Below, piece after piece: positions 30,476 to 51,919 of a stretch of DNA of 64,000 nt. Both the position numbers and the translations under genes were made by a program. Every line of letters starts with the position of its first letter. Positions within the stretch are counted from its first letter, which is position 1. The stretch lies in the NCBI RefSeq assembly GCF_053078305.1, contig NZ_CP166879.1; one strand, 5' to 3'. A model generated the notes under the pieces. It was given only the letters and a program-made list of their open reading frames with translations, was not told the origin of the DNA and did no database searches.

Positions 30476-30802
30476 ATGATTAAAACAACGTTACTATTTT
30501 TTGCTACTGCGCTGTGTGAAATTATTGGATGCTTTCTGCCCTGGTTGTGGTTAAAACGAAACGCCAGTATCTGGCTGTTGCTTCCGGCGGGGATTTCACT
30601 GGCGCTGTTTGTCTGGTTGTTAACGTTGCATCCTGCGGCGAGTGGGCGTGTTTACGCGGCTTATGGTGGCGTTTATGTCTGCACGGCGTTGATGTGGCTG
30701 CGCGTTGTGGATGGCGTGAAACTGACTCTTTATGACTGGACGGGTGCGTTGATTGCGCTTTGCGGCATGTTGATCATTGTTGCGGGCTGGGGGCGCACGT
30801 AG
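30476..30802 (+). CDS. ynfA: Membrane protein YnfA (UPF0060)
   Basis: Translation [20 protein letters not shown]...; 108 aa, four TM helices. Confidence 0.8.
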
Positions 30803-31007
30803 GAACATAAATCCATTTTATCAATAAGATACGAGGAAGTGTCAGCTGACAAAAGGTATTCTATTTCATCTTTTGTCAACCGTTCACAGCGCAAATATAC
30901 GCCTTTTTTTGTGATCACTCCGGCTTTTTTTGATCTTCATACTTGTATGGTAGTAGCTCAGTTGCGTAGATTTCATGCATCACGACAAGCGATGCAAGGA
31001 ATCGAAC

Positions 31008-32222
31008 ATGAAGATCGTAAAGGCTGAAGTTTTTGTTACCTGTCCGGGGCGTAATTTCGTCACATTAAAAATCACCACTGAGGACGGTATTACGGGCCTT
31101 GGGGATGCCACCCTCAATGGACGTGAGCTTTCTGTGGCCTCTTATTTGCAGGATCACCTTTGTCCGCAGCTTATTGGTCGCGATGCGCACCGTATCGAAG
31201 ATATCTGGCAGTTTTTCTATAAAGGTGCTTACTGGCGTCGCGGTCCGGTTACGATGTCGGCCATTTCAGCGGTTGATATGGCGCTGTGGGATATTAAAGC
31301 CAAAGCTGCCAACATGCCGCTTTACCAGTTACTCGGCGGCGCGTCTCGTGAAGGGGTGATGGTTTATTGCCATACCACCGGTCACAGTATTGATGAAGCT
31401 CTGGATGATTATGCCCGTCATCAGGAGCTGGGATTCAAAGCCATCCGCGTGCAGTGCGGCATCCCTGGTATGAAAACCACCTACGGCATGTCGAAAGGTA
31501 AAGGTCTGGCTTATGAACCCGCAACCAAAGGACAGTGGCCGGAAGAGCAGCTGTGGTCGACGGAGAAATACCTCGATTTCATGCCGAAATTGTTTGACGC
31601 GGTACGTAACAAGTTTGGTTTTAATGAACATTTGCTGCATGACATGCACCATCGCTTAACGCCTATTGAAGCGGCGCGCTTTGGTAAAAGCATTGAAGAT
31701 TATCGCATGTTCTGGATGGAAGACCCGACGCCTGCGGAAAACCAGGAATGCTTCCGTCTCATTCGCCAACATACCATCACACCCATCGCGGTGGGTGAAG
31801 TCTTCAACAGCATCTGGGACTGCAAGCAACTGATTGAAGAGCAACTTATCGATTATATCCGCACCACGCTGACCCATGCAGGCGGAATTACCGGTATGCG
31901 CCGGATTGCCGATTTTGCTTCGTTGTATCAGGTACGTACTGGCTCACACGGTCCTTCCGATTTGTCACCAGTCTGCATGGCTGCGGCGCTGCACTTTGAT
32001 CTGTGGGTCCCCAATTTCGGTGTCCAGGAATACATGGGTTATTCCGAACAAATGCTCGAAGTCTTCCCGCACAACTGGACTTTCGATAACGGCTATATGC
32101 ATCCGGGAGACAAACCGGGTCTTGGCATCGAATTCGATGAAAAGCTGGCGGCGAAATATCCCTATGAACCTGCTTATCTGCCAGTCGCACGTCTGGAAGA
32201 TGGCACGCTGTGGAACTGGTAA
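31008..32222 (+). CDS. rspA: Starvation-sensing protein RspA (enolase superfamily, mannonate dehydratase-like)
   Basis: Translation [22 protein letters not shown]...; track ORF trimmed to the ATG at 31008. Confidence 0.9.
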
Positions 32223-32233
32223 GGAGTAAGATA

Positions 32234-33253
32234 ATGAAAAGCATATTAATTGAAAAACCGAATCAACTGGCGATTGTCGAACGTGAAATACCCACCCCGT
32301 CAGCGGGTGAAGTTCGAGTAAAAGTAAAACTTGCCGGAATTTGTGGTTCAGATAGCCATATTTATCGTGGGCATAATCCTTTTGCGAAATATCCGCGCGT
32401 CATTGGACATGAATTCTTTGGCGTCATTGATGCGGTGGGTGAAGGTGTGGCAAGCGCCAGAGTCGGTGAACGTGTTGCTGTCGATCCGGTGGTCAGCTGT
32501 GGTCATTGCTATCCGTGCTCTATAGGTAAGCCGAACGTTTGTACGACACTGGCTGTATTAGGTGTGCACGCTGACGGTGGTTTCAGTGAATATGCCGTGG
32601 TTCCGGCAAAAAATGCGTGGAAAATTCCTGAAGCAGTGGCCGATCAATATGCGGTGATGATCGAACCTTTTACCATTGCGGCTAACGTAACCGGTCATGG
32701 TCAACCGACTGAAAATGATACCGTTCTGGTTTACGGTGCCGGTCCAATCGGCCTGACGATCGTTCAGGTATTAAAAGGCGTCTATAACGTTAAAAATGTG
32801 ATTGTTGCCGATCGCATTGATGAACGACTGGAAAAAGCGAAAGAGAGCGGGGCTGACTGGGTGATTAATAACAGCCAGACACCGCTTGGCGAGATTTTCG
32901 CTGAAAAAGGCATCAAGCCGACATTAATTATCGATGCGGCTTGTCATCCTTCTATCTTGAAAGAGGCCGTAACGCTGGCTTCTCCAGCGGCACGTATTGT
33001 ATTGATGGGGTTCTCCAGTGAACCGTCTGAAGTGATTCAGCAAGGAATTACCGGAAAAGAACTCTCTATTTTCTCTTCACGCTTAAATGCAAATAAATTT
33101 CCGGTCGTTATCGACTGGTTAAGTAAAGGGTTAATTAAACCAGAAAAATTAATTACCCATACGTTTGATTTTCAGCATGTTGCTGATGCCATTAGTTTAT
33201 TTGAACAGGATCAAAAACATTGCTGCAAAGTCTTACTCACTTTTTCTGAATAA
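32234..33253 (+). CDS. rspB: Starvation-sensing protein RspB (zinc-type alcohol dehydrogenase family)
   Basis: Translation MKSILIEKPNQLAIVER..., GHEFFG zinc motif, GAGPIG Rossmann motif. Confidence 0.9.
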   Translation: MKSILIEKPNQLAIVEREIPTPSAGEVRVKVKLAGICGSDSHIYRGHNPFAKYPRVIGHEFFGVIDAVGEGVASARVGERVAVDPVVSCGHCYPCSIGKPNVCTTLAVLGVHADGGFSEYAVVPAKNAWKIPEAVADQYAVMIEPFTIAANVTGHGQPTENDTVLVYGAGPIGLTIVQVLKGVYNVKNVIVADRIDERLEKAKESGADWVINNSQTPLGEIFAEKGIKPTLIIDAACHPSILKEAVTLASPAARIVLMGFSSEPSEVIQQGITGKELSIFSSRLNANKFPVVIDWLSKGLIKPEKLITHTFDFQHVADAISLFEQDQKHCCKVLLTFSE

Positions 33254-33310
33254 TACCAATAACGGCGAGTAAGTAGTACGCATCTTACCTCTTTTTTAGA
33301 GATAACCATT

Positions 33311-33418
33311 ATGACAATAGAAAAACACGAAAGAAGCACTAAGGATTTGGTGAAAGCAGCGGTATCGGGATGGCTGGGCACTGCGCTTGAATTTATGGAT
33401 TTCAAGAGTCATGCATAG
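33311..33418 (+). pseudogene. ydfJ: 5' fragment of MHS-family transporter gene ydfJ, truncated by prophage insertion
   Basis: ORF MTIEKHERSTKDLVKAAVSGWLGTALEFMDF then stop after only 35 codons; the G-x3-E-[FW]-x-DF motif is the start of an MHS transporter; an integrase gene begins immediately downstream. Confidence 0.6.
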
Positions 33419-33446
33419 TAACCATTTGATAAATATTAAATTAATT

Positions 33447-34721
33447 TTACCCCGCCTTGTTATGGGGCATGGTTGGGGCAAACTCGCTTAGCTGTGTATT
33501 TAACAGCGTTACCTGTGCATTATTATTTTCTGACATCCATTTTCCGTACACCTGAAACACCATTTGCGCATCGGCATGCCCCATCTGGTTTGCTATGAAT
33601 GCAGGATTAGCACCAGCTGTTAGCGACCAGCAGGCATAAGTATGTCTCGACTGATATGATTTTCGGTGGCGGAGTCCTGCTCGTTTTATTGCTGCGTCCC
33701 ACATCTGTCTTATTGAGTCAACAGTAAAATGGTCACCATAATTTTTTACTCTCGCTGACACTTCAGGTTGAAAAACAAAGGTGCATTTTTGTTTTTCTGT
33801 TCTGCCATACTCTCTGAGGTGAACATCAATGATATGCTCTTTGCTCAGTCTCGTTAGTGTCATCTGATTCTGGAGGGCCTCGATTGCTGGCTTAATAAGG
33901 TGAATTACACGATTAGTCCCCGCCTGTGTTTTTGGTACCGTAAAATGGTCTTTTGCTAAATTTCTCCTGATCATCATTGTTCCATTTTTCAGATCTATGT
34001 CCTCCCATCCAAGTGCACACAACTCACCAGGGCGAACGCCAGTATAAACAGAAACACACCACAAATTTTTGGCTTGCTGATTTCTGCACGCATCTATAAG
34101 GCGGATAAATTCCTCCCGCGAAAGAGGATCTGGAATGGTTCTTGATTCCTTTAATGGCGATATCCCCTTAAACGGATTATCTGCCAGGTAGCTGTTATCA
34201 ACACCAAACTGGAACACGGCGTTAAGATTTGTCATGTAATTATTTACGGTAACAGCCGATCTCCCGGGTTGTGTAACAATATAGTTACTTTTGGGGATCT
34301 GGTATCCAGTCAGTAACTCTTTACGAACCTCCAGTAATTTTTCTTTATTAATCGATGAGGCAAGATTTTTTTCACCGATTATGCTCAGGATATTTTTGAT
34401 GACGGCACGGTATGTATTGAGTGAACTTCTGGCAACTTCGGCCTCTTTTAGTGCCAGAAATTTTTCGGCCAGTTCACCTATAGTCAAATTTTGTCTGGCT
34501 TCCCCAAATTTTTCCAGATTGTGGGAGTAGGGGAACTGTTTTGCGTAGTCAAAAATCCCCGTTTTTATTGCGTAACAAACAGAAGCGCGTAGTTCACCAG
34601 CGATGCGTCTGTTTTTTACTGTGTCAGGGACACCGAGGTTTTCCCTGACTCTTACGCCTTTATAAACAAACCAGATGCGTAATGTCCCCCCGTGTTTTTC
34701 TACGCCTGTCGGATATTTCAT
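33447..34721 (-). CDS. int: Phage integrase (tyrosine recombinase)
   Basis: 424-aa ORF with C-terminal catalytic R...H-x-x-R...Y region (RHTYACWSLTAG...HADAQMVFQVYGKW); adjacent to the disrupted ydfJ. Confidence 0.9.
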   Translation of the reverse strand: MKYPTGVEKHGGTLRIWFVYKGVRVRENLGVPDTVKNRRIAGELRASVCYAIKTGIFDYAKQFPYSHNLEKFGEARQNLTIGELAEKFLALKEAEVARSSLNTYRAVIKNILSIIGEKNLASSINKEKLLEVRKELLTGYQIPKSNYIVTQPGRSAVTVNNYMTNLNAVFQFGVDNSYLADNPFKGISPLKESRTIPDPLSREEFIRLIDACRNQQAKNLWCVSVYTGVRPGELCALGWEDIDLKNGTMMIRRNLAKDHFTVPKTQAGTNRVIHLIKPAIEALQNQMTLTRLSKEHIIDVHLREYGRTEKQKCTFVFQPEVSARVKNYGDHFTVDSIRQMWDAAIKRAGLRHRKSYQSRHTYACWSLTAGANPAFIANQMGHADAQMVFQVYGKWMSENNNAQVTLLNTQLSEFAPTMPHNKAG

Positions 34722-34755: not shown

Positions 34756-35007
34756 TTAAGCAAGGTGACGTCTTGGCCTTGCCGATGCCTGACGCTCGAT
34801 CCAGCGATCAATTTCTTCCAGATTGTAAAAACATGGGCTGTTATCCCACGGCATGCCGTCATGAGCGACATGTTTATACTCTCTCCCTTCCATAAATGAT
34901 TTTTCCCTGGCTTTTTTCAGTGTTCCTTTTTTTATTCCTTTCAGCGCAATTAACTGCTCTTCAGATACCCATTTGCCGGGAGAGACAATCATGATTACTT
35001 CACTCAT
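34756..35007 (-). CDS. xis: Putative excisionase
   Basis: 83-aa ORF immediately upstream of int on the same strand; typical xis position. Confidence 0.5.
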   Translation of the reverse strand: MSEVIMIVSPGKWVSEEQLIALKGIKKGTLKKAREKSFMEGREYKHVAHDGMPWDNSPCFYNLEEIDRWIERQASARPRRHLA

Positions 35008-35077: not shown

Positions 35078-37597
35078 TTAAAAATCAGCCTGATTCGGGA
35101 ACAGTTTTTGCCAGATAACTGAAACGTATTTTGCCTGGTAACGCGCATCGTGCAGGGCATTATGGCGTTCACCCTCAAATGTGATGACGTTGCGGGCATC
35201 GAAATCCATCACCAGTCCCAGGGCAACAATCGTTCTTACATCACGATCGTTGTAGTGACGCCACGGGCAGGGGATTTCTTGTCGTTTATATGAACGGCTT
35301 AAAATTACGTTGTCGAAGTTGGCTCCATTTCCCCAGACCTGAACAAAAAACTCACCGGAGTTTTCGTCTATAAATTCCCGTAATTGTAAAAGCGCATCAT
35401 CAAGCGGTATTCGATCAGCTAAAATGGCGGCACGGGCTTCGCCAGAGCGTTGAAGCCACCATTCGATGGTGCTTATGTCTACAGTGCCACCACATGTATC
35501 CATATCAATTATTTTGCTGAATTCTGGCCCCAGTTCTCCGGTTTGCGGATCGAAAAAGACTGCGCCTATTGAGGCTATTGGTGCGTCAGGATTTTTGCCC
35601 ATCGTTTCAAGGTCAATCATCAGGTGATCCCACATTCTGCTGGTGGATGTGCTTTCACGATGACCGTTCACCTTAATTAAGGGATTTGCTGTCTCGCCTG
35701 TTTCATTATTGCCATTGGCATGTTGATCGCCTTCGGTGCACTCCTTGTTCGGGTGTCCGGCACTTTCCATTTCCTCCAGATCTTTTTCCCGGGCTTCATC
35801 CTGGCTTTCTTCGTTGAATGTCTCCTGGTATGTTGCGTCGCCCATCACCGCGCCACAGTCAGGACAGTTGCCGCCACCGCTCTGACCGCAGGCGGTGCAG
35901 ACTTTTTCCTCTTCCTGTTGCGCTACTGGTTCGGATTGTTTCGTTTCTGGCTCGTCTTGTAACGCATTTTGGCTGTTTTGTTCTGCTTTCTGGTCGTTCT
36001 GTTCCGTTTCTTGCTGGTTCTGGTTCACAGAATCGCAGGTTTCAATCCCCTTAACCCATTTCGAATCATTCGGGTCGCTAATCCCTTCAACAAACTCACC
36101 ACGGGAAGCGGCAAGCAATTTGTCGGCATCTGGTCGACTGATGTCTGCTGCCTCCATAATTTTATTTACTTCTTCAGCAGTAACTTTTACCTGTGACTTG
36201 TCATCCAGCGGCTGCGGGTCCTGATGATGTTCAACTGTATCCGCTGCCATTGTTTCAGCCGTTGCCTGTTCATCTGCCATTGCGCCAGATGGCTGCGGTT
36301 TTTCTTCATCATCCTGTTTTCCTTCTTTTGTTACACGCTGAGGGATAGGGGCAGAGGAGCGACCGCAGGCAATATCCACGATTTCCGGATCAGGGTTGGC
36401 ATGATCGGTTTCGGTCAGTACTTTGTTCAGATATTCGGTAACACGGTGGGGAGTAGCCTCGATACCAATTGGTGCTTCTTTCACGGACGCAACTACTATC
36501 GCGCGGGAATAATCCAGGTGACCAGGCATGGCGATGAATTTGTCACGAAAAACAGAAAAGGGCGGCTTATTCTCTGAAACGATTTCTTCAATGCGTTTGG
36601 CGTGTGCCGGATGTGGATTGTAAATATCGATGTCCATTGAACGGGCCAGAACGCCAGCGGCAACGTCACGTTCCACTGACGCATCATCGTGGACAAAACC
36701 TTCACCGCGATCGGTAAGAATTCCTCCGCCAGCATTAGCGCCGGACGGGGTGCGATTGATTTCAGATACGCAATTTCCCTTTGCCCACTCTTTTGTCAAC
36801 AGCCCCTGATCAAGGTAGTCAGTCTTCATCCAGGTGGAAATGAACTTGTCGAATTCTGCCGGGCTGATACGGCGTGTTGTTGCGTGAGTGAATGCCTTTT
36901 CCACCGAATGCGCCAGTCTTCCAAGATGATGGTTTGTCAGCTTATCCAGCTCAGGATGCGAACGTACTGCAGTAAGCAGGCTCTGTATGTTTCCATCTTC
37001 CATATCCATTTCGATGCGGATCACGTCCTTGCGTTGTTCTGGTGTGGCGTGATGTTTGTATTTCTCGTCGAACTCCTGACCAAAGAAGTAGAGGTGCAGG
37101 AAGCGATGGGTAAGACTCAGGGTGGAGACGGGGATTTCACATTCAGGGCAGTCATCGTTGCTGTCCGGGGATTCGCTTTTATCTGCGTTCTCTGTCTGAG
37201 AGTCACTTTGTTCATCGCAGTCACGGCTGACACCTGTAACAGCTTCGCCGCTGGTATTGTCAGTGCTGGCAGGTTTGTCCTGAGCTGAAGGGGAAGGAGC
37301 TATAAATATCATTGTGATACCATCTTCCCCGCCTTTTTCGTAACGGTTGCAGAATTCAGTATCAAACACGCCTTCTGGAGGAAGGTCATTCACAACGGGT
37401 AAATGGACGCGAACAGGTTTTTTAAAGTCGTCCTCGTCATAATCATTATCATCCATTGCGGTAATGCAGCGGGAGATGGCAACAGATAATTTTTTTGCTG
37501 TAGTCCAGTAAAAACCACCTTTAATCCCAAGGCGTTTTCTGACCTTGTCATTTTTTGCTTCGCAATATAGTGCAAAAGTTTCTTTATCAGTGCTCAT
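35078..37597 (-). CDS. Prophage exonuclease, 839 aa, with C-terminal DEDDh-type 3'-5' exonuclease domain (often annotated exodeoxyribonuclease VIII)
   Basis: C-terminal approx. 190 aa carry the exonuclease motifs (MIDLETMG ... NGANFD ... HNALHDARYQA); central region strongly acidic and low-complexity with a CxxC...CxxC pair. Confidence 0.6.
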   Translation of the reverse strand: MSTDKETFALYCEAKNDKVRKRLGIKGGFYWTTAKKLSVAISRCITAMDDNDYDEDDFKKPVRVHLPVVNDLPPEGVFDTEFCNRYEKGGEDGITMIFIAPSPSAQDKPASTDNTSGEAVTGVSRDCDEQSDSQTENADKSESPDSNDDCPECEIPVSTLSLTHRFLHLYFFGQEFDEKYKHHATPEQRKDVIRIEMDMEDGNIQSLLTAVRSHPELDKLTNHHLGRLAHSVEKAFTHATTRRISPAEFDKFISTWMKTDYLDQGLLTKEWAKGNCVSEINRTPSGANAGGGILTDRGEGFVHDDASVERDVAAGVLARSMDIDIYNPHPAHAKRIEEIVSENKPPFSVFRDKFIAMPGHLDYSRAIVVASVKEAPIGIEATPHRVTEYLNKVLTETDHANPDPEIVDIACGRSSAPIPQRVTKEGKQDDEEKPQPSGAMADEQATAETMAADTVEHHQDPQPLDDKSQVKVTAEEVNKIMEAADISRPDADKLLAASRGEFVEGISDPNDSKWVKGIETCDSVNQNQQETEQNDQKAEQNSQNALQDEPETKQSEPVAQQEEEKVCTACGQSGGGNCPDCGAVMGDATYQETFNEESQDEAREKDLEEMESAGHPNKECTEGDQHANGNNETGETANPLIKVNGHRESTSTSRMWDHLMIDLETMGKNPDAPIASIGAVFFDPQTGELGPEFSKIIDMDTCGGTVDISTIEWWLQRSGEARAAILADRIPLDDALLQLREFIDENSGEFFVQVWGNGANFDNVILSRSYKRQEIPCPWRHYNDRDVRTIVALGLVMDFDARNVITFEGERHNALHDARYQAKYVSVIWQKLFPNQADF

Positions 37598-38073: not shown

Positions 38074-38631
38074 TCAACAATGAATTTTTAGTAATTGCTC
38101 CACAGTCATATTTTTAATTGCGCTCCGGTTTACAAGAGTCCAGCCTTGTTTCTCCAGATAAAACTGGAAGGTATCCAGGGTGCAGACCATTGCGCCGTCC
38201 GGAACGGTTTCAGTGAATTTGATATTGCCGTGTTCGTCGAGACGGATAACCAGGGTACGTCCGTCCCCGTGAATCATTTTGTCGGGAGACGGGGCGTTAT
38301 TCTGGCGCAGTTCTTTCTCCATGCGATCGAACTCAGCGATGTAGGCTTCTTTAAATGCAGCGGCTTTTTTGCCGGTGAAGCCCATCACCAGGAAAACGAA
38401 GCCGTTTTTGGTGATTTGGTACATGGGGCGTTTTTCGCCTTTGGCATCGGTGTAGGTAACCGACACAAAATTGTGTTCGTTAAAATTTGATGAGCAGTCT
38501 AAATTGCGAATTTTATCCAGTACTCGCTCGTGACGCTTACCAAAGAACTCTGCAATTGCAACAGACGTAGTGACAGCGCGACCATTTTTGATGGTTACGT
38601 CAGGGTGAGAAAGGGTAGGGATAGTAGCCAT
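38074..38631 (-). CDS. Rha-family phage regulatory protein
   Basis: Translation MATIPTLSHPDVTIKNGRAVTTSVAIAEFFGKRHERVLDKIRNL matches the Rha N-terminal motif; AAGAGG SD upstream; the track's longer ORF (to 38928) crosses a terminator-like hairpin. Confidence 0.6.
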   Translation of the reverse strand: MATIPTLSHPDVTIKNGRAVTTSVAIAEFFGKRHERVLDKIRNLDCSSNFNEHNFVSVTYTDAKGEKRPMYQITKNGFVFLVMGFTGKKAAAFKEAYIAEFDRMEKELRQNNAPSPDKMIHGDGRTLVIRLDEHGNIKFTETVPDGAMVCTLDTFQFYLEKQGWTLVNRSAIKNMTVEQLLKIHC

Positions 38632-38794
38632 AATGGCAGCCTCTTGGTTGAGTATTAATAACTCACCACCAAGGTTTTCCACGACCATAAGGGTGGTGAG
38701 ACGTACAGGGGTGGAAATACCGGTCAACCAAGAATCCGGCCAGCCTTGCGGCTGCCCTGCACGCCCCACCATAATCTGAATGTGGCTGTGCATT

Positions 38795-38823
38795 ACGCAT
38801 AAAAAAACCGCCTGAGCGCGGTT
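38795..38823 (-). terminator. Weak intrinsic terminator between the DicF-like RNA and the Rha-like gene
   Basis: Minus-strand AACCGCGCTCAGGCGG followed by TTTTTTT; stem only 4-5 bp. Confidence 0.3.
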
Positions 38824-39119
38824 ATGCGCTTGATTGAATTCCGGGTTTCCACGCCCGGCACCCGCTTTATGAGGTGCAGATGAACTATAATTCCACCCGT
38901 TCTGGTTTTCAATAGCTACATTCAACATTTTCTCTTACCCTTCATCACCGAAGTGAACTTTGTTGATGCAGTGCCTGGTGCCTCCAGGTGACGTTAACCA
39001 GTTAACAATTAACGCCGGAATACAGAAGTATGCCCGTTACGCCCCGTAAAAGACCACTTTACGGTTTTAACTGTTCCGCGTGCGCTTAGCCGCATTCACC
39101 GCATCACAAAATTCACTTT

Positions 39120-39177
39120 AAAAAGGGTGGCAGAGCAGTCACGGAGTAGAACTGATGCCACCAAAGACTACACATGG
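39120..39177 (-). ncRNA. dicF: DicF-like small RNA
   Basis: Minus strand reads ...GGTGGCATCAGTTCTACTCCGTGACTGCTCTGCCACCCTTTTT, near-identical to the 3' two-thirds of K-12 DicF including its terminator hairpin; 5' segment diverges. Confidence 0.55.
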
Positions 39178-39771: not shown

Positions 39772-40179
39772 TTATTGATGTTTGTTACGTTTGCGAGCTT
39801 CTAGTAGCTCGGTGAATAGGCGATTAAAATTCTCAACGCGGGCACGGAGTTCGCTGATCTGTGCTTGCTGCTCTGATTTTGGAAGTGCGCGATACAATCG
39901 CAACATCTCCAACTCATCTTCCGATAAGTCTAAGGCGCTGTTGAGTGCAACTGGTGGATCTGGTGTTTTATCCTCGTCACCAAACAGTATCCAAGTTGGT
40001 GAACATTGCAATACCTCAGCTAGGCGATGCAAATTTTGCCCGCGCGGGGCTGTATGGTCGCTTTCCCATAGTGAAATTGATGAGCCAGATACGCCAGCAG
40101 CTTTGCTTAAATCGTTTTGACTTAAACCAACCTGTTTGCGTCTTTCTCTAATTCGTTGACCTAAAGTTTTCTCGTTCAT
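39772..40179 (-). CDS. dicA: DicA-like HTH (XRE family) prophage repressor
   Basis: 135-aa ORF with N-terminal HTH (LSQNDLSKAAGVSGSSISLWE) and the DicA-like C-terminal segment VLQCSPTWILFGDEDK; divergent from the Cro-like gene. Confidence 0.8.
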   Translation of the reverse strand: MNEKTLGQRIRERRKQVGLSQNDLSKAAGVSGSSISLWESDHTAPRGQNLHRLAEVLQCSPTWILFGDEDKTPDPPVALNSALDLSEDELEMLRLYRALPKSEQQAQISELRARVENFNRLFTELLEARKRNKHQ

Positions 40180-40256
40180 ATTTAGATATCTTAATAACCC
40201 TTGACTTGAGATTCCTTGAGTGATTACTATTGAGAAAACTCAAGCCTGGAGGGGTG
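40180..40256. promoter_or_regulatory. Immunity-region operator with divergent promoters
   Basis: Repeated half-sites ACTTGAG...TTGAGT...TTGAG...CTCAAG between the divergent dicA-like and dicC-like genes. Confidence 0.5.
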
Positions 40257-40484
40257 ATGTTTAAATCAGACGTAATTAATTTTTATGGGACGAAAGCCAA
40301 AGTAGCGAAAGCTGCTGGTGTTGATCCATCTGCTGTTTCTCAATGGGGGGAACTGGTCCCTGAAGGTCGCGCGATGCGCCTGCAAGAGGCATCCGGCGGG
40401 GAGCTTCAGTATGACCCCAAAGTTTATGACGAATATCGTAAGACGAAGCGGGCGGGGCGGGTGAACAATGAAAATCACTCCTGA
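40257..40484 (+). CDS. dicC: DicC-like Cro-type regulator
   Basis: Translation MFKSDVINFYGTKAKVAKAAGVDPSAVSQWGELVPEGRAMRLQEASGGELQYDP resembles DicC; start set to the internal ATG. Confidence 0.7.
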   Translation: MFKSDVINFYGTKAKVAKAAGVDPSAVSQWGELVPEGRAMRLQEASGGELQYDPKVYDEYRKTKRAGRVNNENHS

Positions 40485-40989
40485 ACAGGTTTGCGAGGCT
40501 CTGGATGCCTGGGTATGCAGACCAGGAATGACACAGGAGCAGGCGACGATATTAATCACCGAAGCATTCTGGGATCTGAAAGAGCGCCCGAACATCGATG
40601 TTCAGCGTGTCACGTTTGATGATGGCGCGGTTGATCAACGGGCGCTTGGCGTTAACCGGGTGAAGATATTCGAACGCTGGAAGGCTATCGACACCAGGGA
40701 TAAGCGTGAAAAATTCACGGCGCTGATTCCGGCAATTATGGAGGCTATCCGGATTAGTGATTTCAGGTTGTACCGCGAAATTACTGACGGAAAAAGCATT
40801 ACGTACATGATTGCCGGGTTAAACAAAGAATATGGCGATGTGGTGGAGTCCGGGCTGCTTTTTGCAGATCCAGCTGTTGTGGAACGTGAGACAGACGAGC
40901 TTATAGAAAAAGCAATCGCTTTCAAGCGTGCCTATCGTCACCAGTACCAACAAAAAGCCGGATGGAATTATGAGCCTTCTTTTTGCTGA
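40468..40989 (+). CDS. YdaT-like prophage protein
   Basis: 173-aa ORF MKITPEQVCEAL... overlapping the dicC-like 3' end; resembles Rac YdaT in N-terminus and the ...REKFTALIPAIMEAI... segment. Confidence 0.45.
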   Translation: MKITPEQVCEALDAWVCRPGMTQEQATILITEAFWDLKERPNIDVQRVTFDDGAVDQRALGVNRVKIFERWKAIDTRDKREKFTALIPAIMEAIRISDFRLYREITDGKSITYMIAGLNKEYGDVVESGLLFADPAVVERETDELIEKAIAFKRAYRHQYQQKAGWNYEPSFC

Positions 40990-41935
40990 ACGCCCGCTGG
41001 TTATAAACACACAGCTGGCGATGAAGATTGGTTTAAACGAAGCCATTGTGTTGCAGCAACTGCATTACTGGTTAAGGGATACCAGTTCCGGCATGGAATG
41101 TGATGGCGTTCGCTGGATTTACAACACAACGGAACAATGGCTGGAACAGTTTCCGTTCTGGTCAGAGTCAACGTTAAAGCGTGCGTTTGCAAGTCTGAAA
41201 GCGCTGGGGCTTTTGCGTAGCGAAAAGCTCAATAAATCGAAGCGTGATATGACTAATTTTTACACAATTAACTACGATAGCGCGCTTTTAGATGATGGCA
41301 AAGTGAACGAATCCATCGGGGCAAAATGCGCCACTCCATCAGGTCAAAATGACACGATGGAAGAGGTCAAAATGAAACGTTCCATTGGTTCAAAACGGCC
41401 CAATGTCATCAGGTCAAAATGGCCCGATGATCCTACAGAGAATACAACAGAGAATACAACAGAGAATAAAAAACTCTCTTGTCCGGACGCTTCGCAACCG
41501 GACGAGTTGACGGCTGAACAGGCGTTTTTAACCCGCCATCCTGATGCAGTTGTGTTCAGCGTGAAAAAACGCCAGTGGGGAACCCGGGAGGATTTGACAT
41601 GTGCGCAGTGGATCTGGGGGCGGGTTGTAAACCTGTACGAACAGGCTGCCAGTGACGATGGTGAGATCACGCGACCGAAAGAGCCCAACTGGACGGCGTG
41701 GGCCAATGACGTGCGCACAATGCGGATGCTGGATGGAAGAAGTCACAGACAAATTTGCGAAATGTTCAGTCGGGCACAACGGGATCCGTTCTGGATAAAA
41801 AACATCAAGAGCCCGGAAAAACTCCGTGAGAAATGGGATGAACTGGTTATTCGACTGTGGCGTGGTCCCGCGCAGCGTTGCGTGAATCATATTTCTGAAC
41901 CGGATACCGAAATTCCGCCGGGTTTCAGGGGGTAG
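40970..41935 (+). CDS. Phage replication initiation protein (O-like replisome organiser)
   Basis: Translation MSLLFAERPLVINTQLAMKIGLNEAIVLQQLHYW...; internal repeat-encoded linker; followed by a DnaC-like loader. Confidence 0.6.
   Translation: MSLLFAERPLVINTQLAMKIGLNEAIVLQQLHYWLRDTSSGMECDGVRWIYNTTEQWLEQFPFWSESTLKRAFASLKALGLLRSEKLNKSKRDMTNFYTINYDSALLDDGKVNESIGAKCATPSGQNDTMEEVKMKRSIGSKRPNVIRSKWPDDPTENTTENTTENKKLSCPDASQPDELTAEQAFLTRHPDAVVFSVKKRQWGTREDLTCAQWIWGRVVNLYEQAASDDGEITRPKEPNWTAWANDVRTMRMLDGRSHRQICEMFSRAQRDPFWIKNIKSPEKLREKWDELVIRLWRGPAQRCVNHISEPDTEIPPGFRG
41318..41475 (+). repeat. Iteron-like direct repeats plus 12-bp tandem repeats (candidate ori) inside the replication gene
   Basis: GGTCAAAATG at 41342, 41365 and 41412, variants GGGCAAAATG and GGTTCAAAACGG, followed by ACAGAGAATACA in about 2.7 tandem copies (41436-41468). 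Confidence 0.55.
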
Positions 41936-41941
41936 CGCACC

Positions 41942-42682
41942 ATGAAAAACATTACGTCAGGTGGTGTTCTGGCAAGAGTCAGCAGATTTGTGCCGCAGGA
42001 TGCAATCCCTCCGTACCGTACGGTGGCGGAGTGGCGGGAATGGCAGCTTGCTGAAGGGCGTAAGCGAAGCGAGGAGGTTAATCGTCTGAATCATCAGACG
42101 CGGGTTGAAAAAATCATTAACCGCTCCGGTATCCAGCTGCTTCACCGGAAGTGTACGTTCGGTAACTACCGGGTGCAGAACGATGGTCAGCGCCATGCCC
42201 TGAGTCAGGCGAAATCCATTGTGGCAGAGCTGGAAGGCGGCTGTACGAATTTTGTTTTCAGTGGCAGGCCTGGCACAGGAAAAAACCACCTGGCGGCGGC
42301 TATTGGCAACCACCTTCTGGCGAAAGGTCGCAGTGTGATTGTGATAACAGTGGCGGATGTGATGCTGGCGTTACATGGCAGCTACGACAACAAAAACTCG
42401 GGCGAAAAATTTTTGCAGGGATTGTGTGGCGTTGACCTGCTGGTACTGGATGAAATTGGCATGCAACGGGATACGCGTAATGAGCAGGTCACGCTTAATC
42501 AGATTGTTGACCGCAGAACGGCATCGTTACTCAGTGTGGGGATGCTGACAAATCTTAATCATGCAGCGATGAATACACTTCTCGGCGAGCGGGTAATGGA
42601 CCGCATGTCCATGAACGGTGGTCGCTGGGTGACTTTTAACTGGGAGAGCTGGCGTCCGAACGTCAGCCAGCACAGGAACTGA
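41942..42682 (+). CDS. DnaC-like helicase loader (IstB-type AAA+ ATPase)
   Basis: Walker [16 protein letters not shown] and Walker [10 protein letters not shown]. Confidence 0.8.
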
Positions 42683-42711: not shown

Positions 42712-43473
42712 ATGGAAACCGTATTGCATGCACTGAAAGCGATGGGTAAAGCCAATTCTGTTGAACTGGCGGCGCGGCTTGATATCAGCCGTGAAGAAGT
42801 TCTCAACGAACTGTGGGAACTCAAAAAAAATGGCGTTGTTGATAAAACGGGTCACACCTGGTTTCTGGCTGGTGAAGGTGAATCCGGGGTAACCGAAGAG
42901 CAGCCAGCACAGTCTGAAGTACCGGATGTGCTGACCGGGGAGGTCGAACAAAAAGTTACCGCGGACATGATGATTGAGTTTATCTGTCAGGATGGGGCTA
43001 AAACGTGTGAGGAACTGGCGGATAAGTTCGGTGTTAGCATTCGCAAGGTTGCTTCCACGTTGGCGGTCGTAACAGCAACGGGGCGCCTGGCACGCGTAAA
43101 TCAGAACGGTAAATTTCGTTACTGCATACCGGGCGCTGATTTACCGGCAGAGCCGGAAGCTGCATCCGTAGCGGAAACCGATGGTAAAGCCTTTCCTCAG
43201 CCAGCAGGTGTTGCGTTACCAGTCCGGGAAGCTGCAACACAGGAAGAAATAAAAACGGAAAGTGTGGCGGTCACAGTGCAGTCACAGCCGTCGTTCACCA
43301 GAAAGCATCCGGATGGTCTGATTTTACCATCGCTGCATGTGGCTAACCGCGAGCTGCGCCGGGCAAAAGGTCAGGTTCAGAAGTGGGAGCGAGTCTGCGC
43401 CGCGCTGCGGGAGCTGAACAAGTGCCGGGATATTCTCCGGGATATTACCGCCACCAGAGAACACCAGCGGTGA
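42712..43473 (+). CDS. Hypothetical phage protein with N-terminal winged-helix-like segment
   Basis: 253-aa ORF; no family recognised. Confidence 0.5.
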
Positions 43474-43532
43474 GTGGGTGGAAGACGTGGTGCCGGGCTG
43501 AAATTCTGATACTCCGGCAGTGCGCGGGAACA

Positions 43533-43787
43533 ATGAAGGTAAAAAGCATTGGCGCACTTATCGGACGAACTGAAGCGGCAGTGAGAACGAAGGCACGGGA
43601 GTTGGGCATCAGCATGATGTTACGTGGTGATTTTCACCCGTCGGCAAAATATTCACAACGTGATATTGAGCTGGCGCGGCAACTGCATCAGCGCGGTGTA
43701 CCCCGACGGGAAATTGCCGAAAAGTTCGGAATGAAGTTGCGCACAGTGAATAACTACGTTTATTTCGACAGGAGGGTTCAGGCGTGA
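43533..43787 (+). CDS. Hypothetical small protein (start uncertain)
   Basis: Frame open from 43383; first ATG after the upstream stop is at 43533; possible HTH (RREIAEKFGMKLRTVNNYV). Confidence 0.35.
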   Translation: MKVKSIGALIGRTEAAVRTKARELGISMMLRGDFHPSAKYSQRDIELARQLHQRGVPRREIAEKFGMKLRTVNNYVYFDRRVQA

Positions 43788-44080
43788 GGGTGAGAATTTA
43801 TATCGCCGGTCCGATGACGGGATATGAAAATTTCAACCGCGAGGCGTTTCACAGGGCGGAAGAAGCACTGAAACGGGAAGGGCATACCGTTTTAAACCCG
43901 GCAGTACTTCCGGACGGGCTGACTCAGCCGCAGTACATGGATATTTGCATGGCAATGATTCGTTGTGTGGATGCGGTTTATATGCTGAAAGGCTGGCAGC
44001 GGTCGGCAGGCGCTAAGGCAGAGCTGGCACTGGCGGAGAAACTGGGGCATGCGGTGATTTATCAGGAGGTGGCTCAATGA
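43784..44080 (+). CDS. DUF4406-type protein (nucleoside 2-deoxyribosyltransferase-like fold)
   Basis: Translation MRVRIYIAGPMTGYENFNREAFHRAEEALKREGHTVLNPA fits the N-terminal motif of this family. Confidence 0.6.
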   Translation: MRVRIYIAGPMTGYENFNREAFHRAEEALKREGHTVLNPAVLPDGLTQPQYMDICMAMIRCVDAVYMLKGWQRSAGAKAELALAEKLGHAVIYQEVAQ

Positions 44081-44538
44081 GAGAGGTTAACTATGAGGCG
44101 CTTCGTGAGGCAGCACAAAACTATCAGTCGACGCTGGCGTGGTATCAGGCTATCCCGGACAGCCCAAATGCTGAACGGGATTGTGATGCGGCTCTTGCTG
44201 CGTTTAAGCGTCACATCCGTCATCGGGAAGCGGATATTATCGCTGATTTGCTGGATGGACTGGAAGAAGCAAAATCACAACTCAACGAGCAACGTGAGTA
44301 TTACGAAGGTGTTATCTCGGATGGGAGTAAGCGCATTGCTGAACTGGAAGCGCGGGAAGTTCAATTACCGACTCGCTACGACCTTCGATATGGACACCCG
44401 ATAAATGCAGATGAGCGACAAGTCATGATACCTAAAGAAAATGGCAGTTGGCTTTACCTGATTGACCTAGAACACGCATTACGCGTCGCTGGCATTCGCA
44501 TCAAAGGAGAGGAGCATGGAAATAAAACCAGAGGATGA
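44077..44538 (+). CDS. Hypothetical phage protein (Ead/Ea22-like, coiled-coil)
   Basis: 153-aa ORF overlapping neighbours by 4 nt; coiled-coil centre; family assignment tentative. Confidence 0.45.
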   Translation: MREVNYEALREAAQNYQSTLAWYQAIPDSPNAERDCDAALAAFKRHIRHREADIIADLLDGLEEAKSQLNEQREYYEGVISDGSKRIAELEAREVQLPTRYDLRYGHPINADERQVMIPKENGSWLYLIDLEHALRVAGIRIKGEEHGNKTRG

Positions 44539-46094: not shown

Positions 46095-46385
46095 CCTGGC
46101 CTGAAGCATTAACAACGGTAGGAATTGCGATGGCGGTGGCGCTGGTGGTGTATTCGATTTGCCGCTGGGGATAAAAACGGTTTGCGGGAAAAGGAGAGTT
46201 AAGTAGAATTGCAGCGGGTGCTTGAGGCTATCTGTCTCAGGCATGAACACCAAAAGGCAGATAGAGAAAAGCCCCAGTTAACATTACGCGTCCGGCAAGA
46301 CGCTTAACATTAATCTGAGGCTCAATCTGTGAACGGCAAATCTAGGTTAGCCTCTTACGCGCCGAAAGGCAAGGAGAAGCAGGCT

Positions 46386-46541
46386 ATGAAGCAGCAAAAG
46401 GCGATGTTAGTCGCCCTGATCGTCATCTGTATTACCGTCATTGTGACGGCACTGGTAACGAGGAAAGACCTCTGCGAGGTACGAATCCGAACCGGCCAGA
46501 CGGAGGTCGCTGTCTTCACAGCTTACGAACCTGAGGAGTAA
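46386..46541 (+). CDS. hokD: Hok/Gef-family type I toxin (HokD-like)
   Basis: Translation MKQQKAMLVALIVICITVIVTALVTRKDLCEVRIRTGQTEVAVFTAYEPEE; upstream in-frame extension corresponds to the overlapping mok frame. Confidence 0.85.
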   Translation: MKQQKAMLVALIVICITVIVTALVTRKDLCEVRIRTGQTEVAVFTAYEPEE

Positions 46542-46643
46542 GAGACCAGGCGGGGGAGAAATCCCTCGCCACCTCTGATGTGCCAGGCATCCTCAACGCA
46601 CCCGCACTTAACATGCTTCGGCGGGTTTTGTTGTATTAGAATA

Positions 46644-46961
46644 TCAGGATATTACCTGGATCCCGTTTTTCTCGACAACTGAAAGAAGCCGAAGAGCTGC
46701 ACCTCCCGGGCGTTTCACTCCTCGTTCCCAGTCTGATATCAGGTTTTTACTGACGTTGAGGTATCTGGCAAAAACAGGTTGAGACAGATGCTCTCGTTCT
46801 CGCAGTGCACGGATCCTTTCTGGAGACATTACCGGCGCAGGCTGAAGACAAGTTTCATCGAATTCGCGCATAGTTTGTTTTGTGATTGCACCGATATCAT
46901 GGAGTGACTCCATCATTTCATGTACAGATGCAAGTGCATCACTGCGGTAATTTTTACTCAT
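46644..46961 (-). CDS. HTH (XRE family) antitoxin, HigA-like
   Basis: 105-aa ORF with C-terminal HTH (LSQPVFARYLNVSKNLISDWERG); overlaps the upstream toxin gene by 8 nt. Confidence 0.55.
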   Translation of the reverse strand: MSKNYRSDALASVHEMMESLHDIGAITKQTMREFDETCLQPAPVMSPERIRALREREHLSQPVFARYLNVSKNLISDWERGVKRPGGAALRLLSVVEKNGIQVIS

Positions 46962-47325
46962 TGGGTACCTCCGTGAACTGGCCTTGTTGAATCAATTGTG
47001 CCAGCTGTTCATCAGTAAGATTGAGGACATGGGGAGCGGCTTTTCGAAAAGCATTTTCCTCTATAGCAGTGATATTCTCTCGTTCATTCTTTGCGTATGC
47101 GTAGATGAAAAAGGCTTTTTCTGCAACGCGGTAAAAAATTATTGTCCGGTAACCGCCTGATTTTCCGCCACCACTTCGGGCTAATCTTTGTTTAATGACA
47201 CCACTACCCAAATTTGCGGATATGATCCCCTTATCGGCCAGCTCCACGATTTTGCGCAGCGATTTATCGGAAATCCGATGTTTTCGGGCGAAACGTTCAA
47301 ACCAGGCGTTTTTGAAAATTCGCAT
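46954..47325 (-). CDS. RelE/ParE-superfamily toxin, HigB-like
   Basis: 123-aa ORF with GGGKSGGYRTIIFY segment; toxin-first order typical of higBA. Confidence 0.5.
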   Translation of the reverse strand: MRIFKNAWFERFARKHRISDKSLRKIVELADKGIISANLGSGVIKQRLARSGGGKSGGYRTIIFYRVAEKAFFIYAYAKNERENITAIEENAFRKAAPHVLNLTDEQLAQLIQQGQFTEVPNE

Positions 47326-48103: not shown

Positions 48104-49153
48104 GTGCGGGTATTACTTCGACCTGTTCTGGTACCGGAACTCGGGATGGTGCTCCTAAAGCCGGGCCGTGAATCAATGTCAGCATTCCATAACGGCAGAA
48201 TATTGGTGGAGCCGGAACCGAAAAACATGCGCGGTCTGCCGTCCGGAGTCGTTCCTGCCGTTCGACAGCCGCTGGCAGAGGATAAAACATTACTGCCATT
48301 TTTCAGCAACGAACGGGTGATTCGTGCTGCGGGTGGCGCTGGTGCACTGTCTGACTGGTTATTACGTCACGTGAAATCCTGCCAGTGGCCACACGGTGAT
48401 TATCATCACAGCGAAACTGTCATTCACCGTTACGGTACCGGCGCGATGGTGTTGTGCTGGCACTGCGACAACCAGCTGCGCGACCAGACATCAGAATCAC
48501 TCGATCAACTTGCTCAGCAGAATCTGGTTGCCTGGATGATTGACGTTATCCGTCACGCAATAAGCAGTACGCAGGAGAGGGAGTTATCGCTGGCCGAATT
48601 ATCCTGGTGGGCGGCCTGCAATCAGGTGGTGGATGCACTACCTGAGGCAGTAGCGCGTCGTTCGCTGGGATTACCAGCGGAAAAAATCCGCTCCGTATAC
48701 CGTGAGAGTGACATCGTACCGGGAGAACAGACAGCCATCAGCATACTGAAGCAGCGCACAAAAAATATTGCGCTGCCACTTCACGTCCACCAGCAACAAA
48801 ATCCACCACAGAAAAAAACGGTTGTCAGTATCGCCGTTGATCCGGAGTCTCCTGAATCGTTCATGAGGCGGCCTAAACGTCGCCGTTGGGTTAATGAGAA
48901 ATACACGCGCTGGGTAAAGACACAGCCGTGTGCGTGTTGTGGTAAGCCTGCTGACGATCCGCATCACCTGATTGGTCATGGTCAGGGGGGAATGGGGACA
49001 AAGGCCCACGATATTTTCACGCTACCGTTGTGCCGGGAGCACCACAACGAACTTCATGCAGACCCGCTGGAGTTTGAGAAAAAGTACGGCTCTCAGATTG
49101 AGTTAATTTTTCGTTTTCTTGATCACGCCTTTGCGACTGGCGTGCTCGGGTAA
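48104..49153 (+). CDS. ydfU: YdfU-like prophage protein (DUF968)
   Basis: 349-aa ORF; C-terminal CACCGKPADDPHHLIGHG...LPLCREHHNELH Cys/His cluster; same length and position as Qin YdfU. Confidence 0.55.
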   Translation: MRVLLRPVLVPELGMVLLKPGRESMSAFHNGRILVEPEPKNMRGLPSGVVPAVRQPLAEDKTLLPFFSNERVIRAAGGAGALSDWLLRHVKSCQWPHGDYHHSETVIHRYGTGAMVLCWHCDNQLRDQTSESLDQLAQQNLVAWMIDVIRHAISSTQERELSLAELSWWAACNQVVDALPEAVARRSLGLPAEKIRSVYRESDIVPGEQTAISILKQRTKNIALPLHVHQQQNPPQKKTVVSIAVDPESPESFMRRPKRRRWVNEKYTRWVKTQPCACCGKPADDPHHLIGHGQGGMGTKAHDIFTLPLCREHHNELHADPLEFEKKYGSQIELIFRFLDHAFATGVLG

Positions 49154-49165
49154 AAGAGGTGACTG

Positions 49166-49525
49166 ATGCTCATAGATTTGGTTTTACCTTACCCGCCGAC
49201 GGTGAACACTTACTGGCGACGCCGTGGCAGCACATATTTTGTATCAAAAGCAGGGGAGCGTTATCGCCGGGCAGTGGCACTTATTGTTCGCCAGCAGCGG
49301 CTGAAATTAAGCCTGTCCGGACGGCTGGCAATAAAAATTATTGCAGAGCCACCGGATAAGCGTCGTCGTGACCTGGACAATATTCTGAAAGCACCGCTGG
49401 ATGCGCTGACGCATGCGGGAGTGCTCATTGATGACGAGCAGTTTGATGAAATCAATATTGTACGTGGTCAGCTTGTTCCTGGTGGTCGGTTGGGTGTGAA
49501 GATTTACAAAATTGAGAGTGAGTGA
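49166..49525 (+). CDS. rusA: Holliday junction resolvase RusA
   Basis: 119-aa ORF MLIDLVLPYPPTVNTYW...RRRDLDNILKAPLDAL matching RusA. Confidence 0.85.
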   Translation: MLIDLVLPYPPTVNTYWRRRGSTYFVSKAGERYRRAVALIVRQQRLKLSLSGRLAIKIIAEPPDKRRRDLDNILKAPLDALTHAGVLIDDEQFDEINIVRGQLVPGGRLGVKIYKIESE

Positions 49526-50094
49526 GCGTAAATATGATATATCCGGAAATTACAGGCAAAAGCGGCGAACATTTACGCCTGAACACGCTGGAAGCAGTCT
49601 GGATCCAGGGGAAATTACGGATGTGGGGGCGGTGGTCGTATATCGGTGGGGGTAAATCCGGAAATATGTTTAACCGGTTACTGGTTTCGAAGAAGCTGAC
49701 GAAAACAGCAGTTAATGAGGTTTTACGCAGAATGAAGAAATCCGGGCTGGAAAAACCGGAACTTGAGGCATTTTTTCGGGATATGACCAGAGGGAAGCAG
49801 AAGAGCTGGTTGTCACATTGTACAGACACAGAGGCGTTGATTATTGATCGCGTTATCAGTGAGGTGCTTGGGGAATATCCCGGGCTAATCAATATTCTCC
49901 GGCAAAGGTACGAAGGACGGGGAATGAGCAAACTGAAAATGGCCGAAAGGTTAAATGCAGATCATCCTGAGTGGACGTTGGTTACGTGCAGACGCCGAAT
50001 TGATCAGTGGTTGGGGATATCTGAATTTATGTTACATGCCCCCATGCGTATGGCTTTTGTTACAGAGAAAAAAATGTTGCAAACTGATCAATAA
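49522..50094 (+). CDS. Putative late-gene antiterminator (Q-like)
   Basis: 190-aa ORF between rusA and the terminators/tRNAs; assignment by position and loose resemblance to QuuD-type Q proteins. Confidence 0.45.
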   Translation: MSVNMIYPEITGKSGEHLRLNTLEAVWIQGKLRMWGRWSYIGGGKSGNMFNRLLVSKKLTKTAVNEVLRRMKKSGLEKPELEAFFRDMTRGKQKSWLSHCTDTEALIIDRVISEVLGEYPGLINILRQRYEGRGMSKLKMAERLNADHPEWTLVTCRRRIDQWLGISEFMLHAPMRMAFVTEKKMLQTDQ

Positions 50095-50658: not shown

Positions 50659-51717
50659 ATGCTTAATACTGTAAAAATATCCAGTTGTGAGTTAATCAAC
50701 GCCGACTGCCTGGCATTTATCCGGTCGTTACCCGAAAATTCTGTTGACCTGATAGTCACGGACCCGCCGTACTTTAAAGTGAAGCCTGAGGGCTGGGATA
50801 ACCAGTGGAAGGGCGACGATGATTACCTGAAGTGGCTGGACCAGTGTCTTGCGCAGTTCTGGCGGGTGCTGAAACCTGCCGGAAGTCTTTACCTGTTCTG
50901 TGGCCATCGCCTGGCATCTGATATCGAAATCATGATGCGTGAACGCTTCAGTGTGCTGAACCATATTATCTGGGCAAAGCCGTCCGGACGCTGGAACGGG
51001 TGCAACAAGGAAAGCCTGAGGGCGTATTTCCCCGCCACAGAGCGCATTCTGTTCGCGGAACATTATCAGGGGCCGTATCGTCCGAAAGATGCCGGGTATG
51101 AGGCGAAGGGCAGGGCACTGAAACAGCATGTGATGGCCCCGCTGATTGCTTACTTTCGTGATGCGCGTGCTGCCCTGGGGATAACGGCAAAACAGATTGT
51201 GGATGCCACAGGAAAGAAAAACATGGTGTCGCACTGGTTCAGTGCCAGTCAGTGGCAGCTACCGAACGAAAGCGATTATCTGAAATTACAGGCGCTGTTT
51301 GCCCGGGTGGCAGAAGAGAAGCATCAGCGCGGTGAACTGGAAAAGCCCCACCACCAGCTGCTGGAGACGTATACTTCACTGAACCGGCAGTATGCGGAAC
51401 TGCAGAGTGAATATAAGCATCTGCGGCGGTATTTTGGCGTGACGGCGCAGGTGCCGTACACCGATGTGTGGACGCATAAACCGGTGCAGTACTATCCCGG
51501 GAAACATCCGTGCGAAAAACCGGCAGAAATGCTGCAGCAGATAATCAGCGCGAGCAGTCGTCCGGGGGACCTGGTTGCAGATTTTTTCATGGGGTCGGGT
51601 TCGACAGTCAAAGCCGCGATGGCGCTGGGGCGTCGTGCAACTGGCGTTGAGCTGGAGACTGAACGTTTTGAGCAGACGGTCAGGGAAGTACAGGATTTAG
51701 CCAGTCAGAACGGATGA
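50659..51717 (+). CDS. DNA methyltransferase (N6-adenine/N4-cytosine, DPPY type)
   Basis: N-terminal LIVTDPPYF and C-terminal FFMGSGST motifs; 352 aa with a long insert between them. Confidence 0.8.
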   Translation: MLNTVKISSCELINADCLAFIRSLPENSVDLIVTDPPYFKVKPEGWDNQWKGDDDYLKWLDQCLAQFWRVLKPAGSLYLFCGHRLASDIEIMMRERFSVLNHIIWAKPSGRWNGCNKESLRAYFPATERILFAEHYQGPYRPKDAGYEAKGRALKQHVMAPLIAYFRDARAALGITAKQIVDATGKKNMVSHWFSASQWQLPNESDYLKLQALFARVAEEKHQRGELEKPHHQLLETYTSLNRQYAELQSEYKHLRRYFGVTAQVPYTDVWTHKPVQYYPGKHPCEKPAEMLQQIISASSRPGDLVADFFMGSGSTVKAAMALGRRATGVELETERFEQTVREVQDLASQNG

Positions 51718-51757: not shown

Positions 51758-51833
51758 GGCCCTTTAGCTCAGTGGTGAGAGCGAGCGACTCATAATCGCC
51801 AGGTCGCTGGTTCAAATCCAGCAAGGGCCACCA
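51758..51833 (+). tRNA. tRNA with CAU anticodon, ileX-like (tRNA-Ile2 lysidine type)
   Basis: Cloverleaf GGCCCTTTAGCTCAGTGGTGAGAGC...ACTCATAATCG...GGTTCAAATCC...AAGGGCCACCA; close to E. coli ileX. Confidence 0.75.
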
Positions 51834-51842
51834 TATCACATA

Positions 51843-51919
51843 CCGCCATTAGCTCATCGGGACAGAGCGTCAGCCTTCGAAGCTGGTTGCGCGGGGTTCG
51901 AGTCCTCGATGGCGGTCCA
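51843..51919 (+). tRNA. tRNA-Arg (anticodon TCG)
   Basis: Acceptor stem CCGCCAT/ATGGCGG, anticodon loop CTTCGAA, T-loop GGTTCGAGTCC, 3' CCA. Confidence 0.7.

Follow-up and report, generated by a model that had tools for sequence, protein, structure and literature searches.

The 5' end of ydfJ is a well-described site of prophage integration in E. coli. In K-12, the Qin prophage is integrated site-specifically at this position, removing 28 codons of the gene (PMC6379469). In STEC, ydfJ is a standard prophage integration site (PMC8112680, PMC8767318), and in O157:H7 and O177:H25 strains two to four prophages are clustered there (PMC8112680). The prophages found there, designated PPydfJ, take part in inversions with prophages at ompW, ttcA and dusA in several STEC lineages (PMC8112680, PMC8767318). 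For one of them, P11 of the O26 strain 11368, excision has been shown by attP PCR (PMC8112680), and the legend to S7 Fig of the same paper gives an 18- or 19-bp att for PPydfJ, obtained from the sequenced attP PCR product of this O26:H11 strain (Nakamura et al., 2021).

The site, its att and its frequent occupancy are already published, and the junction described here is an ordinary one of the described kind. Beyond correct annotation the finding therefore matters little. It is worth adding that, in STEC, ydfJ prophages are documented both to undergo inversions and to accumulate prophages within prophages.

The stretch of DNA analysed here (the window, 64,000 nucleotides) had been predicted to contain a prophage inserted inside ydfJ beside an integrase gene, at the locus where K-12 carries the defective Qin prophage. 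This is what was found: ydfJ is interrupted at codon 31/32, the integrase gene adjoins it, and the junction matches the Qin/intQ/ynfP junction nearly base for base. The features around the junction are as follows.

30975-32222: rspA, chromosomal flank
32234-33253 (+): rspB, Zn-dependent oxidoreductase, annotated as rspB in every matching genome
33311-33418 (+): 35-codon open reading frame, the 5' fragment of ydfJ fused to phage DNA
33388-33406 (+): attL copy of the 18/19-nt att, TGAATTTATGGATTTCAAG, its left side of attB type and its right side of attP type
33393-33403 (+): 11-bp core TTATGGATTTC, identical in attL, attB, attR and attP
33404-64000: visible part of a lambdoid prophage, 30.6 kb, running off the end of the window in the portal gene
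33419-33431 (-): IHF-consensus match, a candidate H'-like site
33447-34721 (-): tyrosine integrase, 424 aa, full length
33463-33469 and 33474-33480 (+): tandem TGGGGCA, candidate P' arm-type Int sites
34756-35007 (-): excisionase of the DUF1233 family, 83 aa (E = 1.6e-31), annotated as excisionase in relatives

The start of rspB is inferred from its annotated length of 1020 nt, the mechanically called reading frame being 32210-33253. The flanks of the junction are rspA, rspB and ynfA, and the int-proximal end of the prophage faces rspB. The insertion point lies between rspB and ydfI, within codons 29-32 of ydfJ, and is colinear with K-12, RM10466 and FHI_NMBU_10. Promoters and terminators were scanned for around the junction, with no result exceeding what shuffled sequence would give.

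The transporter-like frame that was seen to stop after 35 codons (33311-33418, translation MTIEKHERSTKDLVKAAVSGWLGTALEFMDFKSHA*) has its ydfJ homology in the first 31 codons. Codons 1-31 (33311-33403) are native ydfJ, while codons 32-35 and the TAG stop are derived from the phage. A comparison with a prophage-free ydfJ allele had been suggested as a check, and was made with strain 5264, whose empty locus has the gene order ynfA-rspA-rspB-ydfJ-ydfI and an intact ydfJ of 455 codons, annotated as an MHS-family MFS transporter. When the intact rspA-rspB-ydfJ locus was compared with the window by BLAST, it matched 30601-33406 at 98.75% identity, with no other match. In a pairwise alignment with the empty allele, the two sequences are identical through ...TTATGGATTTC and diverge completely beyond it. 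This comparison places the breakpoint at 33403-33406, and since the homology stops there, the hybrid frame retains 31 native codons. The integrase gene had been placed 29 bp further on, which is right to within one base: the outer base of the int stop (33447) lies 29 positions past the final base of the ydfJ' stop (33418), with 28 nt between them. The 35-codon frame should be annotated as a 5' remnant of ydfJ, similar to ynfP, and not as a gene.

A second copy of the core and the 3' part of ydfJ were sought within the 64-kb window, and neither was found; homology to ydfJ ends at 33406, and the core occurs once. The att site was analysed by comparing the window junction with three kinds of sequence: the empty ydfJ allele, the junctions at the far ends of K-12 Qin, RM10466 and FHI_NMBU_10, and the attP of the free phage mEp460_ev081. 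The window junction reads ...GCGCTTGAATTTATGGATTTCAAGAGTCATGCAT... and the empty ydfJ site reads ...GCGCTTGAATTTATGGATTTCCAGTTATATTCGC... The far-end (attR) junctions of the relatives read ...ACA(C/T)CT(G/A)TGAATTATGGATTTCCAGTTATATTCGC..., and the contiguous attP of mEp460_ev081 reads ...ACACCTGTGAATTATGGATTTCAAGAGTCATACGT... At the far ends of RM10466, K-12 Qin and FHI_NMBU_10, the phage arm is followed by TTATGGATTTC and then by the 3' part of ydfJ. The left arm of the mEp460_ev081 attP is the phage side of the Qin attR, and its right arm is the phage side of the window junction. The four-way alignment thus has the pattern expected of attP x attB giving attL and attR. Allowing a length difference of one T and a C/A mismatch, the att is 18 nt long in attP and 19 nt in attB.

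Because the 11-bp core is identical in all four types of site, strand exchange must fall within 33393-33403, and the prophage boundary can be placed there. The core had been expected within about 33390-33440; it lies inside that interval, while the 19-nt att begins two bases earlier than the interval. The length of the att in the window (33388-33406) agrees with the 18/19 bp given for PPydfJ in the S7 Fig legend (PMC8112680). One of the two attP primers of that work matches the 3' end of int at 33530-33549 (minus strand, GTACGGAAAATGGATGTCAG) in 19 of 20 bases. A search for the exact attR junction in species-representative genomes gave 0 matches.

We conclude, with a probability of about 0.92, that 33388-33480 is an attL (BOP') left by a lambda-like temperate phage that integrated into the 5' end of ydfJ. 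On this reading, the tyrosine integrase recombined the phage attP (...CCTGTGAATTATGGATTTCAAGAGTCAT...) with an attB in codons 26-32 of ydfJ (...CTTGAATTTATGGATTTCCAGTTAT...). The strands were exchanged within the shared 11-bp core TTATGGATTTC, splitting ydfJ in two. The promoter-proximal codons 1-31 remain beside rspB, where the phage DNA adds four codons and a stop, and the remainder of ydfJ is expected at the other end of the prophage. Excision would yield an attP reading ...GTGAATTATGGATTTCAAGAG... and a restored attB reading ...TTGAATTTATGGATTTCCAGTT...

The core contains the ATG of ydfJ codon 29 (M29), so the far-end ydfJ fragment always retains an in-frame start. The K-12 annotation has a 427-aa YdfJ starting at this core ATG. 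A phage-encoded N-terminal extension on the 3' fragment was considered and rejected, since in the P arms of both K-12 and mEp460 a TGA in the same frame stands two codons ahead of the core ATG.

The integrase itself has the domains expected of this type of enzyme, namely Arm-DNA-bind_2 (PF12167, residues 4-66, E = 1.2e-22) and Phage_integrase (PF00589, residues 201-392, E = 1.3e-18). Alignment to the structure of Tn1549 Int (6EMY) identifies the catalytic residues as R230, K264, R359, H382 and the nucleophile Y392, with Y356 replacing the first His. The window Int and the mEp460 Int are 95% identical over 423 aligned residues, without gaps. The DUF1233 excisionase gene lies directly upstream of int.

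An identical 424-aa Int adjoins rspB/rspA in 8 of 8 contigs among the matches listed. These contigs differ in their immunity and replication modules, the latter being of IstB type in some and of lambda-P/DnaT type in others. Since the identical Int is found at rspB/rspA in all eight despite this variation, the choice of site follows int.

It could be argued that an unrelated event (a deletion, an IS element, illegitimate recombination) cut ydfJ short, and that the integrase gene is adjacent only by coincidence. We regard this as extremely improbable, and the four-way att alignment excludes it: the breakpoint falls exactly at a core shared with the attP of a free phage and with the attR of other genomes. 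The constant position of the identical Int in the 8 contigs argues in the same direction. So does the distribution of the junction. Using a 601-nt query with at least 80% coverage, the same rspB-ydfJ'-int junction was found in 2,673 of 5,426 complete E. coli genomes, which shows that it is not a chance resemblance. The attR junction (400-nt query, at least 80% covered) was found in 3,166 of the same 5,426 genomes. Taken together, the two counts imply that at least about half of the E. coli sequenced are occupied at ydfJ.

The arms of the att site were also examined. Lambda attP has arm-type sites near -130 and at +60 to +80 from the core, with the H' site between. In the window, the two TGGGGCA repeats of the P' arm are spaced by 11 nt and overlap the last codons of int. 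The mEp460 attP and the window P' arm have the pair TTATGGGGCA-TGGTTGGGGCA in common, in tandem at +70/+81 relative to the core. The P arms of relatives also contain TGGGRCA, with two copies in mEp460 and K-12 Qin and three in RM10466, at -147/-137/-126. All of the arm copies have one orientation and a spacing of 10-11 nt. TGGGRCA occurs 14 times in the 64-kb window, counting both strands, and only at 33463-33480 do two copies stand in tandem. The IHF-consensus match TAACCATTTGATA (= YAANNNNTTGATW), one of 7 such matches on both strands of the whole 64 kb, lies between the core and these repeats.

The layout resembles that of lambda attP and would fit an Int with an arm-binding domain. We suggest that the tandem TGGGRCA repeats in both arms may be the sites for the N-terminal arm-binding domain of Int, and that the IHF-consensus match could serve to bend the P' arm as in lambda; on sequence grounds, all of them are candidate sites. 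A limited literature search did not return, for this integrase family, an attP layout with tandem TGGGRCA repeats near -130 and +70 together with an IHF site.

Inside int, the sequence ACCTGTGCATTATTATTTTCT at 33511-33531 (+) resembles the P side of attP plus the core (ACCTGTGAATTATGGATTTCA), about 120 nt from the real core. In a repeat search, the mEp460 copy of this sequence had 86% identity to the attP reference. It may be a chance resemblance or a secondary core-type site.

The remainder of the visible prophage was annotated using Pfam and Rfam. In addition to the genes listed above, it contains the following features.

35078-37597 (-): RecE-like / Rv2179c-like exonuclease, 839 aa
37603-38088: region homologous to the K-12 dicB region
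38074-38928: Rha/Ash regulator reading frame, with C4 and isrK RNAs
38689-38877 (-): C4 antisense RNA (Rfam, 79.8 bits) and isrK (68.4 bits), within the Rha/Ash reading frame
39125-39176 (-): DicF sRNA (Rfam, 61.1 bits)
39772-40179 (-): DicA-like HTH repressor, 135 aa
40230-40484 (+): P22_Cro-like protein; 39772-40484 forms the immunity region
40230-40989: Cro and YdaT
40928-41935 (+): reading frame at the position of the initiator gene, no Pfam family match; replication module 40928-42682
41942-42682 (+): DnaC/IstB-like ATPase, replication module
42712-44538: DUF1627, DUF4406 and Ead proteins
about 46216-46629: hok/sok (sok 109.7 bits), 97% DNA identity to K-12 hokD
46644-47325 (-): RelE-family toxin (123 aa) and HTH antitoxin (105 aa)
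48104-49525: DUF968 protein and RusA
49522-50094 (+): late antiterminator Q (DUF1133 / Phage_antitermQ)
50659-51717 (+): first DNA methylase
51758-52009: three tRNAs, anticodons CAT, TCG and TCT
52107-52610 (+): TerB-domain protein, 167 aa (PF05099), downstream of Q and the tRNAs
52837-53049: STnc100 sRNA (140.9 bits), following the TerB reading frame
53647-55629: NanS-p-like esterase
56257-56526 (+): P21-type holin; lysis cassette 56257-59979
57554-58087 (+): lysozyme, lysis cassette
58580-59515 (+): second DNA methylase, inserted between the lysozyme and Rz genes
59512-59979 (+): Rz, lysis cassette
60682-61191 (+): Nu1, lambda-type terminase
61163-63091 (+): gpA, lambda-type terminase, 642 aa, ATG start at 61163

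The order int-xis-exo ... repressor/cro-replication-NinR(RusA)-Q-lysis-terminase along 33447-63091 is lambdoid, and all of the scanned reading frames in the visible 30.6 kb are uninterrupted. The element had been predicted to retain integrase, excisionase, replication, lysis and packaging genes, all of which are present in this part. The first 30.6 kb of the prophage looks complete. Head and tail genes fall past the end of the window; contigs with an identical gpA continue with the lambda-type genes W, portal, C protease, D, E, FI, FII, Z, U, V, G, T and H.

The immunity region is homologous to the K-12 dicC/ydfX region. A domain search recognised no autocleavage domain in the DicA-like repressor, which makes SOS inducibility uncertain. 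Several features of the gene content are worth recording. The prophage combines a Qin-like cell-division-inhibitor module (DicF and the dicB-homologous region) with a P1/Gifsy-like antirepressor control region. The hok/sok and RelE/HTH loci form two adjoining toxin-antitoxin loci in a nin-like region. There are also two genes for N6/N4-type DNA methyltransferases in the one prophage (50659-51717 and 58580-59515).

The far end of the prophage lies outside the window, which leaves two further possibilities to be weighed. The first is that the attL is genuine, and that its far end has been separated from it by inversion or prophage recombination, or has been deleted, leaving a 'grounded' remnant like Qin. 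The inversions of ydfJ prophages with those at ompW, ttcA and dusA, noted above for several STEC lineages, provide a precedent. In the complete-genome set the attR junctions (3,166 genomes) outnumber the int-side junctions (2,673), so the two ends of a prophage are often not both retained.

The contig JPQG01000004.1 (GCA_000736735.1, E. coli strain 48) is also relevant. Over 21,275 nt its identity to the window is 100%, and coordinate arithmetic makes the window the reverse complement of its positions 8018-72017. By the same arithmetic, the contig ends about 8 kb beyond the end of the window, still inside the prophage. Judging from the gene order of contigs with an identical gpA, this break probably falls in the tail genes. 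A break in the late region of a prophage is the usual sign of repeated lambdoid sequence, and fits a separated far end. However, no gene in the visible 30.6 kb is interrupted and their order is lambdoid, and in the closest relative, FHI_NMBU_10, a single 52-kb prophage retains both att junctions. We therefore consider a separated or lost far end unlikely.

The second possibility, which we consider more doubtful still, is that the prophage in the window is the first of several arranged in tandem, in which case the next junction downstream would be a phage-phage hybrid. The clusters described in O157:H7 and O177:H25 (PMC8112680) provide the precedent here. There is no sign of such an arrangement in the window, and the three relatives examined carry single elements at ydfJ.

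On the preferred reading, of an attL formed by simple integration, the window prophage would be expected still to have its attR and to be able to excise. Strain 48 (JPQG00000000) is the reference for the subAB2-3 subtilase operon (PMC5323612). We put at about even the chances that the element is a complete, excision-competent, non-Stx phage of the PPydfJ group in the subAB-positive E. coli 48, with a TerB gene at the stx2 position. Among the 5,426 complete E. coli genomes, the best backbone identity to the window is 99.3%, and none has a prophage matching that of the window at >97% over its full length.

The element is best described as mosaic and lambdoid, a member of the PPydfJ / Qin integration group, and can be compared with several known systems. 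K-12 Qin (Kim) shares with it the chromosomal site, the att core and a near-identical rspB-ynfP-int junction. In MG1655 the 3' part of ydfJ (b1543, from M29) is followed by Qin (1632277-1652745); then come the intQ pseudogene, the 36-codon ynfP and rspB. DNA identity with the window is 97% from rspA through the intact part of intQ, and homologous patches are found at int, dicB, dicF, dicC/ydfX, hokD, ydfU, essQ and rrrQ. Qin is, however, a 20.5-kb remnant, with intQ broken by IS2, without xis or replication genes, and with only the terminase fragment nohA. By contrast, int and xis are intact in the window element, and its early, lysis and terminase modules are present in full. Its ynfP-like frame is one codon shorter than ynfP of K-12 (35 versus 36 codons).

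The PPydfJ prophages of STEC, such as P11 of O26:H11 strain 11368, have the same integration locus as the window element (PMC8112680). T3SS effector loci (nleC, nleG) or internal attB sites are frequent in them (PMC8112680), whereas no such genes were seen in the visible 30.6 kb; the far-end region, where effector loci are located, lies beyond the window. mEp460 (LR597641), HannyBb, Tritos and PhiR42_1 are free isolated phages of 45-49 kb, while the window contains a prophage. The int-xis region of the mEp460 group has 91% DNA identity to that of the window, and its attP supplies the phage halves of both attL and attR.

RM10466 has an Stx2c prophage at ydfJ, whose junction is 99.7% identical to that of the window over 601 nt. 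At its far end there are tail-fibre genes, then a ydfJ fragment annotated as 'missing N-terminus', and then ydfI. It differs in carrying the stx2c A and B genes at the slot occupied by the TerB-domain reading frame in the window. In the same RM10466 prophage (NZ_CP028381.1, approximately 1900947-1907363), a gene block interrupts the large-terminase gene. Its products are a second tyrosine integrase, a regulator of HTH type, Icd-like proteins and a DNA primase. This block looks like a P4-like satellite integrated in the prophage, and a duplicated capsid-protease fusion gene is found near it.

The prophage in FHI_NMBU_10 comes closest to that of the window, 75% of whose visible part it shares at 91-99% identity. 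It is non-Stx, has the 3' part of ydfJ at its end, and shares with the window prophage a TerB-family gene at the stx position. Its packaging/head module is of HK97 type, in contrast to the lambda-type Nu1/gpA of the window.

The resemblance to lambda lies in the two-domain tyrosine Int with an arm-binding N-terminus, the adjacent xis, the short core identity and, as candidate sites, the arm motifs repeated near -130 and +70 and the IHF-consensus match between the core and the P' repeats. The target is different, being the gal-bio intergenic region for lambda and the 5' end of ydfJ here, and the att sequences also differ, as do the Xis, which in the window is of the DUF1233 family, and the arm motif, which is TGGGRCA.
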